Source: a phage
DNA length: 64,000 bases
Sequence record: OR896157.1
Direction: 5' to 3' (one strand)
The translations under genes and the position numbers were made by a program. Shown piece by piece: positions 1 through 7,088 of this stretch (its first letter is position 1; every line of letters starts with the position of its first letter). The notes below the pieces were generated by a model that worked only from the letters and a program-made list of their open reading frames with translations, ran no database searches and had not been told where the DNA came from.

Positions 1-16
1 GGAATTACAAATTGAA

Positions 17-784
17 TCATTTCCATTTGCCTTTGTAGTCAGATTTCTTAACATCAATCCGGCCGGTTTGACGATAATGGTCAACCAGATAGAAATGACG
101 TTCATACACATGCAGAGACCCAGCGTTCCAAATAATGTCGCCTGGAACATATTTTTCACCAGAGCCTGCATTAACTGTTTCTACTAATGATTCTAACACA
201 TATTTCTGCCAAGCATAATCATTGCGGAAACCAAATACAACATCATTGCTTCGCATATTAACGACAGCGTTTACACGACCATCACGAATAAGATATTGAA
301 CTGTGTTAGTGCACATGAAATCACTCATACCATCACGTTCAAAATCAACTTGCATACTTGGACGAGTGTAAATCATAATTGCGCGGCGAGAGTCTGGTTT
401 TTCAATCAGCTCAGTTGCACAGAATGAGAATTGATTATAGTTTTCAGCAGACCAGATTGCCCAGCCATAGTTTGAGTTAATTTCACCCTTTGAAGATGAA
501 ACTTGTTCCCAAATTGCCGGAGTACCACCCGGAATATCTTTCACGAACAGAGACTTGGATTTGTACCACGCAAGTTCACGTTCAACATATTCTTGGTTAA
601 CTGTTCCGAAAATTGAATCTTCGGTTACTACAAAAGATGGACCAATTAACTCAATGGTCTTTGCGCCAGTTTTGTCAATTACAAACATCTCGTTGAACAG
701 AGCATGGCACAGTTCATCACGAATATCTTCGTTAGTCAGTGGAGTTACAATCATTTTGCCTCTTCGTAGTTTTTCTTCATACAA
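17..784 (-). CDS. 42: dCMP hydroxymethylase (T4 gp42)
   Basis: 255-aa ORF closely matching remembered T4 gp42 over full length (e.g. SDFMCTNTVQYLIRD, NMRSNDVVFGFRNDYAWQKYV). Confidence 0.93.
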   Translation of the reverse strand: MYEEKLRRGKMIVTPLTNEDIRDELCHALFNEMFVIDKTGAKTIELIGPSFVVTEDSIFGTVNQEYVERELAWYKSKSLFVKDIPGGTPAIWEQVSSSKGEINSNYGWAIWSAENYNQFSFCATELIEKPDSRRAIMIYTRPSMQVDFERDGMSDFMCTNTVQYLIRDGRVNAVVNMRSNDVVFGFRNDYAWQKYVLESLVETVNAGSGEKYVPGDIIWNAGSLHVYERHFYLVDHYRQTGRIDVKKSDYKGKWK

Positions 785-1191
785 CGTTTAAATGCTTCAT
801 ATTGGCCAGAAGACCTGAAGTTTTCAAATGCGTTGATATTTTTGCGGGTAGGATTATTATACATTGTTTGATATAAAGCAGCACCATGGAATTCAACGAT
901 AGCTTGGCACTTACGAGCAGCTACTCGCTTTTCATAAGTAGCGTCAAGTTCTCGCTGCTTTTTCATAACGCGTGCTTGGTCACGAGCGATAGGGTCATTA
1001 GCCTGCTGCTGAGCAAGATATTCTTCGCCTTCACGAATAGAAGACTGCTTGACCTGCGGAGTTGAACGAGCATACACCAGACCAGTGCCGCCTACATACT
1101 TAACTTGCCCTACAGTACTAGCATGAACAGTGTCTCCTTGATAAGCACAACCTGCCAGTAACATAGCAGCAGCTACTGCTAAAAATTTCAT
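751..1191 (-). CDS. predicted lipoprotein (signal peptide + lipobox LLAGC) at the imm locus position
   Basis: 146-aa ORF between 43 and 42; N-terminal hydrophobic signal with LAGC lipobox; not similar to T4 Imm by eye. Confidence 0.55.
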   Translation of the reverse strand: MKFLAVAAAMLLAGCAYQGDTVHASTVGQVKYVGGTGLVYARSTPQVKQSSIREGEEYLAQQQANDPIARDQARVMKKQRELDATYEKRVAARKCQAIVEFHGAALYQTMYNNPTRKNINAFENFRSSGQYEAFKRCMKKNYEEAK

Positions 1192-1201
1192 TTCAATATC
1201 C

Positions 1202-1426
1202 TCATCTGTGAGTTACAAGTTTATAAGTCCAATCACTTTCATCTTCACGATAGATGTTAACGATAGAAGTCTCTTTGAGTTTAGCTCGTAGATTCTTTTC
1301 AGTGATTTCAATACCATCATCAAAGAAAATCTTATCAGCACCGCCAGCACTCAGGAAGTAAAAAGTGCTTTTGAGATTGAACTTCAGTACTGGAATGTAG
1401 CTATCGTCGGTGATTGAGTAAATCAT
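1202..1426 (-). CDS. hypothetical protein
   Basis: 74-aa ORF, co-oriented, preceded by sigma70-like promoter at 1453-1481. Confidence 0.45.
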   Translation of the reverse strand: MIYSITDDSYIPVLKFNLKSTFYFLSAGGADKIFFDDGIEITEKNLRAKLKETSIVNIYREDESDWTYKLVTHR

Positions 1427-1452
1427 TTTATTCTCCTTTTGTGTATAGAAGA

Positions 1453-1481
1453 ATTATACCACATCCGTGTGGTAATGTACA
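1453..1481 (-). promoter_or_regulatory. candidate sigma70-type early promoter (-10 TATAAT, -35 TGTACA)
   Basis: minus-strand TATAAT at 1453-1458 with 17-nt spacer to TGTACA; upstream of ORF 1202-1426. Confidence 0.4.
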
Positions 1482-1486
1482 ATGCT

Positions 1487-4195
1487 TTAGAAATCAAACA
1501 TATTGTCTAAAGACGCTTTTTCTTCATAGTCTAATCCAGAAGCTTCTGACATACCAGCAAGTGGCTTAACGAAAGACTTTTGGAACAGAGTCGTATAGTC
1601 CAACCAAGCCAGAACATCTTGACGAATTTCCTGCGGAAGTTCAGTACCTGATGGCCAGGCGATACACTTGTCACCGAATGGGTTACCCTGACGAAGTGGA
1701 AGAACCATCACCTTGTTACCCTCGAGAATCGGAGTGACAGAGAATCCTGCCGTTGCACGATTATAAGTCAGTGCACCACGAACGTGATATGGACATTTCA
1801 GACCAGGGAAACCATTATCGTCATATTTACCAATGTCATTACAAGTTTTAACTTCTGCAATAACTTTGTAGTCCAGCTGACGATATTCCTTCTCAAACTG
1901 TTTGTAGTATTCTTGCAGTGATTCTTCGCCTTCTTGAACCATACGACGAATACTTTCTTCCAGTGCTTTCTGAACTGCTTTTGGCGTAGAAGACTGCTGA
2001 GTTTCCATGCCCATAATCTTCAAGTGTGGTTCAGCATAACGCTTATCTTCCATGTCGTAAACGTTCAGTGCATAACGTTTCTTAGCTTTCCAGAATCCAC
2101 CACAACCTTTTGAACCAAGCGGCGGACATGAAATAGCTTCTCGGTCCATGTGCATAAGATGTTCACGGTTATTGAAATATTCGCACAGTTCACGATAAGC
2201 AGTATCAATCATCGGTTCCATTTTCTTCTTACCGAATTGGTTCATAAATTCAACCACTTCGTCAGTCGTTTTGAAACGTTCAAGACCTACTTTTTCAATA
2301 ACTTTGTCAACAGAAACGTAGATTGAGTCAGTATCACCTGCTGCGATGAAATCAAATCCTTCAGTTCCACACACTTTATTCAGATACTCGTTAACTTTAC
2401 GAGCAATCCAACGAATACCTACTTGACCAAACAGTGTAATAGCAGATGCGTTACGAAGGTCATAATAACGGAAGTAGATGTTACCCAAAGCACCATAAAG
2501 ACTGTTGATAAGAATCTTACGGTTCAACTGGTTTGTGTTTGCTAGAATAGCAGCAGCTTCACATCGAGCCAGCATAGTTTCCAACACCAACTTCGTGTAC
2601 TTATTCAGTGATGCTTTCTGTTCGTCAGTGTACTGAGTGTAACGAGTTTCATCTGGAGTATCAATGTCACCGAATACGCCAGCTGCCAGAACTTTCTTAA
2701 TTTCTTCTGCGTTACGTTCTTCTGCGAACATCTTTTTCTTCCAATCTTTACGCTGGAAGAATACCTTAGCGATTTCTACTGGGATGACACCTTCAATATC
2801 TTTACGATACATCCAACCGTTCGGTGAGCAAGAATACTCGTCACTTGGACGTGGTGCAGTCTTATTGATATAAGCTTCAATATCATAAAGTTTGAATTGA
2901 CCAACAATAGTTTCCGGAGAAATATTCACCTGACGAATGATACTCGGATACAGAGATGTTAAGTCAAAACTCATGATGTACTTACGAGCGCATGCTAATG
3001 GTTCAAATACATATGCACCTGGATAACTTTGCTTGATATGACGCTTACCTTGAGGAACAACTTTGTTCTGTTCTTTCAGGGAGTTAAAGATAATTGCGTC
3101 CCAAGTTTTAATCGGAGACATTACACCACCAAACGGCATCTTGGCATAATAAGACATACTAAGTGCCAGGTCAATGAATCCACGAACTCGGTCAATACCA
3201 CCTACGGACTCAACGTCCATAATGTTATAGCTAATGTATCGTTGGTGATTTGTTTCACGAAGTTTGTTAATTGGACCATCGTATGGCAACTTACCACGTT
3301 TAGTCTCGTATAGAGCGATGTAGTCCAAGTTATAAGTTGGTTGGTTCGTGAATGAATACTTCTTGTACAAATCCATGTAATCCAGAATTGTTACACCATC
3401 AATACTGAATACTTCTTTTTCACCGTACATGTTCTGAATGAGTTTTGAATTCACTCGATTGATTGGAGAGAATCGTTTCATTGAACGTTCACCCAATACA
3501 TGCTTAACACGGTTCATGATGTATGGAATATCGAAGCCTTCAATGTTCCAACCCGTGAAGATTGCTGGACGCTTTTGTTCCCAGAGATTGATATATTCCA
3601 GAAGAAGTTCTTTCTCTGAATGGAAAGGCATGTACACTACACGGTCGAGAATATGTTGTGGAACTTCGTCTCCACCTTCTTTATCACTTCGTGCAGCTAA
3701 CTTCGCGTCCCATTCTGAAACTGAGCCATACAGAGAATCTAACAAATCGAAAACGTAGAACTTATCATCGATTGAATCATAATGAGTGATTGCATCGATT
3801 TCGTACATAGCTTTCATTGGGTCTGGGAATTTATCACCTGTAACTTCGATGTCACAGTTCGCAACACGAATGAATTTCTTGTCATAAACAATTTCAGAAC
3901 CATAAGTGTCGGAGATATAAGCGAGTTTGAAGTCATCCATACCCATGGCTTCAAGACCGATATCTTCCATACGACGAATCCAATCACGAGCATCTTTCAT
4001 GGTTGGGAATGTGTTTTTGATACATGGTTTCCCATAGATATCAAAGAACTTTGTCTTCACACCTTGTTGAGCATGAGAAAACATAGTTGGAGAATATTCA
4101 ACTCGTCGTTGACGTTCTACACCATTGGAGTCAATATAACGTTCAATGATGTCATTACCTGCGGTTTCAATAGAGATATAAAATTCTTGTGCCAT
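1487..4195 (-). CDS. 43: DNA polymerase (T4 gp43, family B)
   Basis: 902-aa ORF collinear with remembered T4 gp43; exonuclease and polymerase motifs (DIE, YGDTDS, KILINSLYGALG). Confidence 0.97.
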   Translation of the reverse strand: MAQEFYISIETAGNDIIERYIDSNGVERQRRVEYSPTMFSHAQQGVKTKFFDIYGKPCIKNTFPTMKDARDWIRRMEDIGLEAMGMDDFKLAYISDTYGSEIVYDKKFIRVANCDIEVTGDKFPDPMKAMYEIDAITHYDSIDDKFYVFDLLDSLYGSVSEWDAKLAARSDKEGGDEVPQHILDRVVYMPFHSEKELLLEYINLWEQKRPAIFTGWNIEGFDIPYIMNRVKHVLGERSMKRFSPINRVNSKLIQNMYGEKEVFSIDGVTILDYMDLYKKYSFTNQPTYNLDYIALYETKRGKLPYDGPINKLRETNHQRYISYNIMDVESVGGIDRVRGFIDLALSMSYYAKMPFGGVMSPIKTWDAIIFNSLKEQNKVVPQGKRHIKQSYPGAYVFEPLACARKYIMSFDLTSLYPSIIRQVNISPETIVGQFKLYDIEAYINKTAPRPSDEYSCSPNGWMYRKDIEGVIPVEIAKVFFQRKDWKKKMFAEERNAEEIKKVLAAGVFGDIDTPDETRYTQYTDEQKASLNKYTKLVLETMLARCEAAAILANTNQLNRKILINSLYGALGNIYFRYYDLRNASAITLFGQVGIRWIARKVNEYLNKVCGTEGFDFIAAGDTDSIYVSVDKVIEKVGLERFKTTDEVVEFMNQFGKKKMEPMIDTAYRELCEYFNNREHLMHMDREAISCPPLGSKGCGGFWKAKKRYALNVYDMEDKRYAEPHLKIMGMETQQSSTPKAVQKALEESIRRMVQEGEESLQEYYKQFEKEYRQLDYKVIAEVKTCNDIGKYDDNGFPGLKCPYHVRGALTYNRATAGFSVTPILEGNKVMVLPLRQGNPFGDKCIAWPSGTELPQEIRQDVLAWLDYTTLFQKSFVKPLAGMSEASGLDYEEKASLDNMFDF

Positions 4196-4217
4196 GAGTT
4201 TCCTTAGTTTTTCCTAT

Positions 4218-4235
4218 AGACCGAGTGATTGGTCT
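4218..4235 (-). promoter_or_regulatory. gp43 translational operator-like hairpin (5-bp stem, 8-nt loop) just upstream of the gene 43 Shine-Dalgarno
   Basis: minus-strand AGACC-AAUCACUC-GGUCU followed by AUAGGAAAAACUAAGGAAACUC-AUG; same architecture as the T4 gene 43 operator. Confidence 0.5.
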
Positions 4236-4246
4236 TTGGTATGTCT

Positions 4247-4271
4247 ATTATACTCCGCTCTGCTGATAGCA
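4247..4271 (-). promoter_or_regulatory. candidate MotA-type middle promoter for gene 43
   Basis: minus-strand TGCTA (MotA-box-like) then 14 nt then TATAAT. Confidence 0.35.
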
Positions 4272-4272
4272 G

Positions 4273-4292
4273 AAAGGGCCCGAAGGCCCTTT
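4273..4292 (-). terminator. GC hairpin AAAGGGCC-UUCG-GGCCCUUU (UUCG tetraloop); copy 1 of 4
   Basis: perfect palindrome GGGCCCGAAGGCCC flanked by A3/T3; lies between regA-distal small ORF and gene 43 leader. Confidence 0.5.
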
Positions 4293-4294
4293 AA

Positions 4295-4456
4295 TTAAAG
4301 CGTAATTTCTTCATACTGAATTACATCATTTTCGTCTTTGTATGGCAGAGTAATCACTGTTCCTTCTGGATAAAGAGGAGTGCCATCTGACGAGAACTGA
4401 CTTTTAAGTGAAGCAATTTGACGAGCTAGTTGTTCTTGTGGAGTACCTTCAAACAT
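4295..4456 (-). CDS. hypothetical small protein (53 aa), start overlaps regA stop (TAATG)
   Basis: ORF in track trimmed to ATG sharing A with regA TAA stop; no T4 counterpart recalled. Confidence 0.35.
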   Translation of the reverse strand: MFEGTPQEQLARQIASLKSQFSSDGTPLYPEGTVITLPYKDENDVIQYEEITL

Positions 4457-4821
4457 TATGCACCTATCGTGTATTTTGATTTGAGAGTCCATTCAGATTT
4501 CTGCTGGAATGTGATAACACGGAAGTTATTCTGCATTTCAGCAAGATGAACATCCGGAGTCACGATATCAAGTAAGCCCCATCCTTGTAACAGTTGGGCA
4601 ATTGAATCTCGACGGATGTAGTCTTCAGAATCAATAGTAACAGGACGACCATCAAGCTTCAACATTTCTTTGAAGTGAACGATGTAGTACTTGCCCTGTT
4701 TCTGAAGAATGTGGCAACTTTGATATAGTACCTTATCTTTGTTATTAGCAATACCCATACGAGTTAGGGTTTCTTTCACTTTCAGAAAATCTTCAGGTTG
4801 TTTCAGAGTAATTTCAATCAT
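4456..4821 (-). CDS. regA: translational repressor RegA
   Basis: 121-aa ORF nearly identical at N-terminus to remembered T4 RegA (MIEITLKxPEDFLKVKETLTRMGIANNKDKVLYQSCHILQK). Confidence 0.92.
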   Translation of the reverse strand: MIEITLKQPEDFLKVKETLTRMGIANNKDKVLYQSCHILQKQGKYYIVHFKEMLKLDGRPVTIDSEDYIRRDSIAQLLQGWGLLDIVTPDVHLAEMQNNFRVITFQQKSEWTLKSKYTIGA

Positions 4822-4822
4822 T

Positions 4823-5386
4823 TTACCATTCCAATGCTAATTTTTTAAGTTGCTTTTGTTCTTTCACGTTTTTAGTAATGCTTTTGACCAGCTCATCAGT
4901 CACTGTACCTTTAAGACGTTTTAATGTCTCAGACAGTTTATTTTTGTTGGCTAGAGTCACTCTATAACGCTCAGCGTCATTGATATTGATTGTATAATGA
5001 TTCATCAATACTTTCAGAATGAGTGTCTCCTGGGCGCTCTCGTTTAACTTAGCCCACTTACCAAAACGGCGTCCTCGAGGAACAGCCGCTTTCAGATAAT
5101 TGAAATGAGCTTCATCTGACAATCCAGAACCAACTAAATTCATCACATAAACTGATGGCATGCATTCTGGAAATTGAGATAGAGCATTTTCTACCATGAA
5201 CTTCGAATAATCACGAGTTCCGATTGATATATCTTTCTTCTCGTTAATTGCACCGATTATTGCGAAGAATTCATTTTCTGCTGTTTCTTTGAAAGTATCA
5301 GAGAGACGTTTAATCTCCGCCTCATCTTTACTATACCAAGCAATCTGGTGTTCGTTCAGCTGAACGTCATCTTCGAATAAACTCAT
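4823..5386 (-). CDS. 62: clamp loader small subunit (gp62)
   Basis: 187-aa ORF matching remembered T4 gp62 (same length, C-terminal [16 protein letters not shown]). Confidence 0.9.
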
Positions 5387-6342
5387 TTGAATTGCATCTC
5401 TACAACAAGTTGCATGAACATATAAGTTATGTGCAGTTCTGTCGAAGCTGCTACACCATGATATTGATTGTTCTCACCGACAATCTCATACATCCTGATG
5501 ATACTTGCTTTATCAACTTTCGTGTAAAGCTCGTTAGCAAGTTTCTCGATAAACCAAGAATAATTAGTCGCATACTTAGGAGCTAATGCACGAAGTTGTT
5601 TAACATCTTTTGATTTCAGTGCATCAATAACATCACTGATATCACCAGAAGTTTTCGTCACCAAATCCAAAATTCCAGAGTCAATAACGCCTTTGGAAGA
5701 ATAATGGTCCAAATCACCAATCGTCTTACGAAAATCTGGGAAGTTCTTGTTAACCAAAGCCGCGATGACTTTAAGGTCTTCAATTTTGATATTCTCGTTT
5801 TTACAGATTTCTACGCAACGGCGAATCATTTCTTTCATCATGCTGCGTTTATCGTCATCAGTCGCTTGACCGAATTTGATAACACGACAACGAGATTGAA
5901 GTGGTTCAATGATACCGTCAATGTTGTTAGCAGTGATGATGATTGTACAGTTGCTTGAATAAGCTTCCATGAAAGAACGTAAGTGACGTTGAGATTCAGC
6001 AAGACCTGAACGGTCAAATTCGTCAATCACAATAACTTTCTGCTTACCGGATAATGAGGCAGCTGTTGCAAAGTTTGTCAGTGGCCCACGTACGAAATCA
6101 ATCTTACAATCTGAACCGTTAACGAACATCATTTCAACACCGACGTCGTTACAAAGTGCTTTTGCTAAAGTAGTTTTGCCTGTACCCGGAGATGCAGATA
6201 CCAGAATCATATGAGGGATGGTGCCTTTCTTGATGATAGCATCGAATACTTGGCGGTCAAATTCCGGAAGAATACATTCCGAAATTGATTGTGGACGATA
6301 TTTCTGTTCGAAGATGTGTTCTTTTTCGTTAATGCTTAACAT
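5383..6342 (-). CDS. 44: clamp loader large subunit (gp44, AAA+ ATPase)
   Basis: 319-aa ORF, Walker A SPGTGKTT, Walker B VIVIDEFD; position between 62 and 45. Confidence 0.93.
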
Positions 6343-6401
6343 AATTTCCTCATATTGAATTAATCAAATCAGTGGATGGTCCGAAGACCATCCTATCACA
6401 A

Positions 6402-7088
6402 TTAGAAATCGTGAGTACTATCTGCTTCCATTGCTACTACATAACTTGCATGTTCACCTTCGAACTTAGCAGCAGTTTTCTTACCTTGTGCCCAGAGCAG
6501 CAGTTTATAATCGGCAGGCTGCATCTTCATGTTACCCATGTTGATAACGAAGTTGAAGTTATTCGTGCCATCATAATCACCGAGAGTCAGAGAATATTTG
6601 GTACGAACAAGTGCAGAATCTTCTACCTTATTGAAGCCGTTCAGAACAATCTTACCATCTTTATTAGTGATGGTGATTGTGTCAATCTGCAGACCGCGAG
6701 ATACTCGCATCAGCTGTTGCAAGTCTTCAGATTTGAAGTCAACGATAACAGAAGCAACCGGGAATGGAATTGGCTTGCTTGGGAATACGATAGTGCTTGG
6801 GTCAGCTGCTGGCCAGAAAATGGTTGAACGAGCATCAGCAATTTTGATGTTACCGTCATCAGCCAGAGAAATTTCTGCATCTTCATTGACCAGAGACAGA
6901 ATACCAAGGAAGCCGTTCAGTTCATAAATCGCAACTTCAAAATCAATTTCATCTGCAATTTTAGCTTCAGCATAAGTTGTACCATTAACTGCTCGAGTCA
7001 TGATGAACTTACCAGGTTTCAGCATAATACCAGAGTTGATGGTAGAGAAGTTTTTCAGAATATTCAGAGTTTCTTTAGACAGTTTCAT
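6402..7088 (-). CDS. 45: sliding clamp (gp45)
   Basis: 228-aa ORF, same length and position as T4 gp45. Confidence 0.88.
   Translation of the reverse strand: MKLSKETLNILKNFSTINSGIMLKPGKFIMTRAVNGTTYAEAKIADEIDFEVAIYELNGFLGILSLVNEDAEISLADDGNIKIADARSTIFWPAADPSTIVFPSKPIPFPVASVIVDFKSEDLQQLMRVSRGLQIDTITITNKDGKIVLNGFNKVEDSALVRTKYSLTLGDYDGTNNFNFVINMGNMKMQPADYKLLLWAQGKKTAAKFEGEHASYVVAMEADSTHDF

Follow-up and report, generated by a model that had tools for sequence, protein, structure and literature searches.

A probable Imm.1-type lipoprotein persists between genes 43 and 42 of a CC31-type Karamvirus that has lost imm

The phage sequence record OR896157.1 was analysed over a stretch of 64,000 nucleotides, here called the window, whose minus strand encodes a 146-amino-acid lipoprotein between the T4-like genes 43 and 42. 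This lipoprotein is very likely the Karamvirus version of the Imm.1 lipoprotein of T-even phages. Its gene is an old resident of the region and not a replacement of the superinfection immunity gene imm, and imm itself has been lost in the lineage of the source phage. The source phage, which is T4-like and infects Enterobacter, is a Karamvirus of the CC31/PG7 type, and bases 1-4300 of the window show 98% identity to Enterobacter phage fGh-Ecl01 and 95-98% identity to approximately 25 other records.

The lipoprotein gene, its signal sequence and its ribosome binding site were located as follows:

751 to 1191, minus strand: Imm.1-type prolipoprotein coding sequence of 146 amino acids, PHROG 1754; identified from the open reading frame (ORF) list, profile and tblastn searches, and the ratio of nonsynonymous to synonymous substitution rates (dN/dS)
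1147 to 1191, minus strand: signal peptide and lipobox, residues 1-15, MKFLAVAAAMLLAG-C; read from the sequence, with Cys15 invariant in the family
1199 to 1203, minus strand: Shine-Dalgarno sequence GAGGA of the lipoprotein gene; read from the sequence, overlapping the stop codon of a 74-amino-acid ORF

The ORF starts with ATG, preceded by GAGGA 8 nucleotides upstream in the minus-strand reading, and at its end the stop codon and the start codon of gene 42 share the sequence ATGA. The N-terminus MKFLAVAAAMLLAG-C comprises a basic n-region, an 11-residue hydrophobic core, and the canonical L-A-G-C lipobox (LLAG-C). Cys15 is predicted to be the first, lipid-bearing residue of the mature protein. 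Position +2 after this cysteine is occupied by Ala. In Enterobacteriaceae, Ala rather than Asp at +2 leads to sorting to the outer membrane by the Lol pathway, and outer-membrane sorting is therefore predicted for the window lipoprotein. The signal peptide is the only hydrophobic stretch of the protein, the remainder being charged and predicted to be helical and soluble.

The corresponding locus of T4 holds two genes, in the order 43, imm.1, imm, 42. The original prediction had described a 146-amino-acid lipoprotein with a textbook lipobox at 751-1191, lying between genes 43 and 42 and occupying the imm locus. The ORF lies exactly there, LLAG-C can be read in it, and the flanking genes confirm its position, with the addition of the 74-amino-acid ORF, which had not been mentioned. 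The assignment to an imm locus stands in so far as the gene is found between 43 and 42; it does not stand as a description of T4, which possesses imm.1 and imm at this site and not imm alone.

The window lipoprotein gene and T4 imm.1 are certainly positionally equivalent. T4 Imm.1 (125 amino acids, UniProt P18057) is itself a lipoprotein, with the N-terminus MKIAILVIALGLAG-C and the lipobox LAG-C. The two proteins share a lipoprotein signal, a length of 125-150 amino acids, the pattern QG.VV....VG after the anchor cysteine, and two cysteines in the C-terminal helical region; both genes are located downstream of gene 43, in most genera beside imm, and belong to the same PHROG. The profile of PHROG 1754 matches the window lipoprotein with an E-value of 2.4e-41 (its residues 1-142 being aligned with positions 2-147 of the 148 in the profile) and T4 Imm.1 with an E-value of 6.1e-43 over its full length, and the window gene is a member of this already catalogued family. 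Comparison of the window group with the T4 group by hhalign gave a probability of 95% over the first 31 columns only, which correspond to the signal peptide and about 16 mature residues (QG.VV....VGQ/K). In a colinear alignment the C-terminal cysteine pairs of both proteins coincide, and the AlphaFold2 (AF2) models of both show a disordered N-terminus with short strands followed by helices, the T4-type model being of low confidence. Homology of the window lipoprotein to T4 Imm.1 is probable.

The two proteins also differ. Their identity is only 23%, and the GTGLVY motif of the window family is not recognisable in T4 Imm.1. Furthermore, the T4 gene adjoins imm, whereas imm is gone in the source phage. 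Some of the comparisons speak against the identification with Imm.1. PHROG 1754 was built from both subgroups, so that common membership is not independent evidence of homology. No match of the window lipoprotein to PF17578 (DUF5481) was obtained at E ≤ 1 (gathering threshold 27 bits), and a Foldseek comparison with viral models yielded a close family member only, T4 Imm.1 not being among the 50 best. When the mature parts alone were compared, profile-profile E-values were 0.04-0.7 and thus not significant, with a very shallow profile on the T4 side (effective number of sequences about 2). T4 Imm.1 scores 239 bits against DUF5481, and the relatives of the window lipoprotein from S16, Merlin and P0012 had no PF17578 match at E ≤ 10. 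With several alignments and modes, hhalign was significant only over the N-terminal 27-31 columns.

Two metagenomic members of DUF5481, P0023 and P0024, lack the lipobox cysteine and possess an ordinary signal of the signal-peptidase-I type (…AHA), which indicates that the lipid anchor is not universal in the T4-type subgroup. The RefSeq record of T4 (NC_000866) labels the gene as iduronate sulfatase (4637-5014 of the retrieved stretch), and many Tequatrovirus and Mosigvirus records name the homologue "immunity" or "immunity protein". Both kinds of label are probable annotation errors, no evidence of a function in immunity having been found.

The gene order of the region was compared across T4-like genera, with the following arrangements:

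S16 (Gelderlandvirus): gene 43, lipoprotein gene, imm, gene 42
Merlin (Moonvirus): gene 43, an ORF, lipoprotein gene, imm, gene 42
CkP1: gene 43, lipoprotein gene, imm, gene 42
JS98 (Dhakavirus): gene 43, imm, a small ORF, lipoprotein gene
SP18 (Gaprivervirus): gene 43, imm, a small ORF, lipoprotein gene
PEi20 (Kanagawavirus): gene 43, lipoprotein gene, arabinose-5-phosphate isomerase gene, with no imm annotated at the site
CHI14 (Winklervirus): gene 43, lipoprotein gene, arabinose-5-phosphate isomerase gene, with no imm annotated at the site
Escherichia phage ST0 (Mosigvirus): DUF5481-type lipoprotein gene, imm and spackle, contiguous, beside dmd and away from gene 43 (1495-2530 of the retrieved stretch)

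The family is small, and its gene follows gene 43 in seven sampled genera of Tevenvirinae. The Imm.1-type lipoprotein gene adjoins imm in seven sampled lineages, including T4, in three arrangements. It travels with imm beside spackle (sp) when relocated, and outlives imm when imm is lost. In PEi20 and CHI14 (1804-2929 and 1807-2846 of the retrieved stretches, respectively) the isomerase gene is overlapped by the lipoprotein gene at the place where the window has gene 42.

The loss of imm can be located at the junction between the lipoprotein gene and gene 42:

751 to 762, minus strand: imm deletion scar GAG GCA AAA TGA (E-A-K-stop), equal to the last imm codons of relatives and overlapping the gene 42 ATG (752-754)

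In CkP1, Merlin and S16, imm terminates with the string GAGGCAAAATGATTGT (…(K/N)EAK, stop), which also takes in the overlapping start of gene 42. The same string closes the lipoprotein ORF in the window (…NYEEAK, stop), with the scar reading GAGGCAAAATGA. As read from this junction, the deletion is in frame and took the original stop codon of the lipoprotein gene together with all but the last few codons of imm. The same junction was found in a KMB17-like metagenomic phage and in the P0010 lineage (52% identical, …NEAK, gene 42 overlapping), and also in the P0009 lineage (65% identical), in which the ORF stops two codons earlier owing to a C-to-T change. Among lineages with this junction the lipoprotein is only 52-77% identical. 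The presence of the same junction in such diverged lineages argues for a single, old deletion, after which the lipoprotein was retained for a long time. The event is placed in the ancestor of the CC31-type phages.

No displaced copy of imm was detected. The search of the window by tblastn with three Imm proteins gave noise only, and a hidden Markov model (HMM) built from seven Imm sequences found nothing better than E 0.05 in the six-frame translation of the window and the remaining 108 kilobases (kb) of fGh-Ecl01. The same model recovered the positive controls S16 and CkP1 with E-values of 6.5e-40 and 6e-30, respectively. The ten commonest organism names in 1347 records holding Imm included no Enterobacter phages. 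The spackle gene is kept in the lineage, at about 19.1-19.4 kb of fGh-Ecl01. These results correct a misreading at the level of annotation, the protein being of Imm.1 type and not an Imm substitute, and document a clean loss of imm in one clade.

The lipoprotein gene is real and under purifying selection. By tblastn it was found in 58 phage records; identity was 80-97% in thirty-one of them, about 80% with a shorter match in two, and 31-40% in twenty-five. Against three close relatives, dN/dS was 0.07-0.36, with dN of 0.02-0.03 compared to 0.000-0.006 in the flanking genes 42 and 43, about 6 to 30 times higher. The lipobox cysteine, Y40 (within GTGLVY), C95 and C137 are invariant across twenty-three family representatives. 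A chance ORF is ruled out by the 58 annotated records, the invariant residues and dN/dS, and a decaying gene by dN/dS and conservation. The alleles are mosaic. The window shares residues ~47-57 (TPQVKQSSIREGEE) with VPA32 and residues ~96-103 (CQAIVEFHGA) with CC31, whereas the lipoprotein of fGh-Ecl01 carries the opposite combination of these blocks, which suggests that phages of 96-98% identity have recombined inside this small gene.

An exhaustive HMMER search of 1.84 billion representative proteins returned only 21 clusters. Those with a traced source are all from T4-like phages, and one further match is a repeat protein. This protein, P0032 (1065 amino acids), contains 17 copies of KVKY.PG.GFVYK and matches only the GTGLVY motif of the lipoprotein family (E 8e-9), probably as an unrelated short strand-turn motif. 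No true bacterial homologue was found in 185,579 scanned species-representative genomes, in which the one weak match is probably spurious.

A captured copy of the lipoprotein gene was found in the genome of Enterobacter kobei GCA_032579055.1. The 346-kb contig ABNQQD010000001.1 contains, at about 242.3-242.9 kb (5967-6561 of the retrieved stretch), a phage-derived fragment of 595 base pairs that is 88% identical to a metagenomic Karamvirus. The fragment harbours the intact lipoprotein ORF P0005, 74% identical to that of the window, together with 34 nucleotides upstream and the first ~115 nucleotides of gene 42. It is surrounded by genes encoding a serine recombinase, a helix-turn-helix protein, an N6/N4 methyltransferase, and a DDE transposase. 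This copy is compatible with a stand-alone benefit of the lipoprotein to the host.

The AF2 model of the window lipoprotein has a mean predicted local distance difference test score (pLDDT) of 71. Residues 1-45 have a pLDDT below 50, with short strands around GTGLVY, and are followed by helices at 49-64, 67-112 and 116-143, and pLDDT exceeds 90 from about residue 90 to about residue 140. C95 and C137 are placed on the two long helices of the model and probably form a periplasmic disulfide. After export, the precursor would receive its lipid at Cys15 and, in view of Ala at +2, would reach the outer membrane, in its inner leaflet. The mature protein of 131 residues would then consist of a flexible tether of about 30 residues, the motif KYVGGTGLVYAR as short strands, and a long helical hairpin. 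KYVGGTGLVYAR is also the best-conserved motif of the family. Sequence searches of Pfam, PADLOC, NCBIfam and PDB gave only sub-threshold matches driven by the signal peptide, and no characterised protein was matched in fold and profile searches. A relationship to a housekeeping lipoprotein family, which would have spoken against a role in infection as originally predicted, was looked for in the same four databases, and none was found.

Expression of the lipoprotein gene early in infection of the source phage is inferred from its context. The gene shares strand and operon with the early genes 43 and 42, a promoter-like site follows gene 43, and the closest late promoter box of T4 type (TATAAATA) is at 17 kb. 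A reading as a late gene was rejected on the gene context and because no late promoter is nearby. T4 imm.1 is classed as early in RNA and protein, the same class as sp, with its label still hypothetical (PMC9697503, supplementary files 4 and 6).

A role of the lipoprotein in exclusion or envelope protection is suggested by its probable early expression and predicted export, by the persistent association of its gene with imm (in Mosigvirus also with sp), and by its faster evolution compared with the neighbouring genes. As judged from gene linkage, the best guess is a periplasm-facing function in an exclusion/envelope module of T-even phages, formed by imm.1 and imm, with the addition of sp in Mosigvirus. 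We regard this function as possible but rather unlikely, and the explanation as a whole, which joins Imm.1-type identity, history and function, as tentative and somewhat short of an even chance. The protein would be made early and would act on the periplasmic face of the infected-cell envelope within this module, where it might hinder a secondary phage while its tail penetrates, or its DNA is transferred, at the periplasmic stage. The long retention of the lipoprotein after loss of imm shows that it is not an obligate partner of Imm.

Several observations count against such a function. The searchable literature gives no experiment or paper assigning a function to Imm.1, the term "imm.1" matching mostly citations of immunology journals. 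In T4, imm cloned alone is reported to give immunity. The linkage with imm could reflect inherited gene order and not common function, the copy in E. kobei is a single case, and the predicted fold is a generic helical hairpin for which PDB searches gave no informative structural neighbour.

In T4, a virus studied as thoroughly as few others, the textbook defences against secondary infection are Imm and Spackle. Should the lipoprotein have a part in exclusion or in protecting the envelope, this picture of T-even exclusion would be incomplete, and T4-like phage cocktails for Enterobacter or Klebsiella could show mutual interference that was not predicted. Similar to the Imm.1-type lipoprotein, Spackle is a periplasmic accessory protein that T-even phages make early; its gene adjoins imm.1-imm in Mosigvirus, and its expression class in T4 is the same. 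However, Spackle is encoded by a separate gene, is not known to be a lipoprotein, and gave no fold match to the window lipoprotein in PDB searches. We consider it doubtful that the Imm.1-type lipoprotein is a third exclusion or injection-blocking factor, independent of Imm and located at the inner face of the outer membrane, from which it would target a conserved periplasmic step in the penetration of the tail or the transfer of DNA. If this were true, the lipoprotein and Spackle would be the remaining exclusion system of CC31-type Karamviruses, and the E. kobei copy would be a case of a host borrowing the lipoprotein gene as a defence.

The original prediction saw in the lipoprotein a candidate non-orthologous superinfection-exclusion factor at the imm locus, which would have taken over the slot of Imm and its job in superinfection immunity. 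The absence of imm from the locus in the window and from the genome of fGh-Ecl01 would fit this proposal, as would the fact that, apart from the lipoprotein, nothing secreted or membrane-associated is encoded between genes 43 and 42 any longer; in addition, spackle is retained elsewhere, so some exclusion machinery is maintained. The two proteins also resemble each other in belonging to the same early cluster between 43 and 42 and in being exported to or inserted in the envelope. That the lipoprotein has no similarity to Imm was predicted correctly, with no Imm family found among its Pfam or PHROG matches. T4 Imm (PHROG 1039) has 64-83 amino acids, hydrophobic membrane helices and the motif FGW..IGW...IW; the lipoprotein has 146 residues and neither such helices nor a match to the Imm model. 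A takeover is nevertheless highly improbable, and on the point of replacement the proposal is contradicted. The lipoprotein has a counterpart in the same position in T4, shares PHROG 1754 with it, predates the loss of imm, and coexists with imm in the sister phages S16, Merlin, CkP1, JS98 and SP18. The scar corresponds to a simple deletion of imm, not to an insertion or replacement. Furthermore, Imm is an inner-membrane protein of two helices, to which a predicted helical lipoprotein of the outer membrane cannot be assumed to be equivalent.

The remaining alternatives assign the lipoprotein other tasks in the envelope, and none of the three has positive evidence. It could mask a receptor, similar to Llp of T5 or Cor of phi80 and N15, inactivating the phage's own receptor from the periplasmic side and thereby keeping superinfecting phages out and sparing the progeny from loss on cell debris; these proteins offer a plausible analogy for phage exclusion by an outer-membrane lipoprotein. 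All of these are phage lipoproteins with a predicted outer-membrane destination that are made during infection, in the case of the window lipoprotein early; fast evolution relative to the neighbours and mosaic alleles are expected when a variable host surface partner is tracked, and the intact copy in an Enterobacter chromosome would fit a receptor blocker. However, the window lipoprotein is larger, has no sequence or profile similarity to Llp and Cor, and is predicted to fold as a helical hairpin, whereas T5 Llp is much smaller and non-helical. Cor PHROG 1119 was matched at E 0.3 over residues 1-18 only, which is the signal peptide, and no defence family of PADLOC or NCBIfam was matched. The family also spans phages of Escherichia, Salmonella, Citrobacter, Serratia and Edwardsiella, with presumably different receptors, yet GTGLVY is nearly invariant, which argues for a conserved target. 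Receptor masking is distinctly unlikely. An accessory function in the envelope or in lysis timing, for example stabilisation of the outer membrane or peptidoglycan, protection from lysis from without, or a contribution to lysis inhibition, is also unlikely. It would agree with a predicted periplasmic, tethered and helical protein, as are several envelope-bridging lipoproteins, and with the early class of T4 imm.1 and the position of the gene beside spackle in Mosigvirus. Spackle protects against the lysozyme of incoming tails. Against it, the holin, spanins, rI and rIII are encoded elsewhere in the genome, and PDB searches gave no similarity to spackle structures. An o-spanin is ruled out, as the neighbours are gene 42 and a soluble 74-amino-acid ORF with no adjoining i-spanin gene, and the spanin pair is located at 140.3-141.0 kb of fGh-Ecl01. 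A factor for counter-defence or host takeover, directed at a periplasmic or envelope component of the host and not at secondary phages, such as a protein inhibiting a periplasmic enzyme or an envelope-associated defence, seems very unlikely. An accessory gene in a variable region, with dN raised relative to its neighbours and known only from enterobacterial T4-like phages (21 clusters in 1.84 billion representatives), would be in agreement with it. However, no similarity to any known inhibitor was found in sequence and fold searches, and the persistent linkage with imm in three arrangements would be left unexplained.

The genes and the promoter-like site around the lipoprotein gene are:

17 to 754, minus strand: gene 42, deoxycytidine monophosphate (dCMP) hydroxymethylase, downstream flank; thymidylate-synthase fold, Pfam E 1e-14
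1202 to 1426, minus strand: 74-amino-acid ORF in a variable slot that separates gene 43 from the lipoprotein gene; part of the operon, outside the lipoprotein family
1453 to 1481, minus strand: promoter-like site of sigma-70 type, TGTACA, 17 nucleotides, TG-n-TATAAT; consensus scan, 10 of 12 matches, extended -10
1487 to 4195, minus strand: gene 43, DNA polymerase of 902 amino acids, upstream flank

On the minus strand the order is gene 44 (5383-6342), gene 62, regA, 43.1, gene 43, the 74-amino-acid ORF, the lipoprotein ORF and gene 42. The start of gene 42 is translationally coupled to the stop codon of the lipoprotein gene. The 74-amino-acid ORF is under purifying selection (dN/dS 0.04-0.10) and had no match in Pfam, PHROG, PADLOC or NCBIfam. 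It is missing in CC31 and apparently also in myPSH1140, and in Merlin the slot between gene 43 and the lipoprotein gene is filled by an unrelated ORF of 79 amino acids (PHROG 4535). The slot is a variable position within an otherwise conserved cluster.

The promoter-like site is located directly after the stop codon of gene 43, and its spacer is a hairpin with a stem of 7 base pairs (TACCACACGGATGTGGTA, window 1453-1486, minus strand). It is a candidate early or middle promoter for the 74-amino-acid ORF, the lipoprotein gene and gene 42. Both of its hexamers, -35-like and -10-like, are present at the same place in CC31-type phages and CkP1, and weaker in S16 and a metagenomic relative. In this metagenomic relative the -35 region reads TTTGCTTA, which resembles the MotA box of T4.

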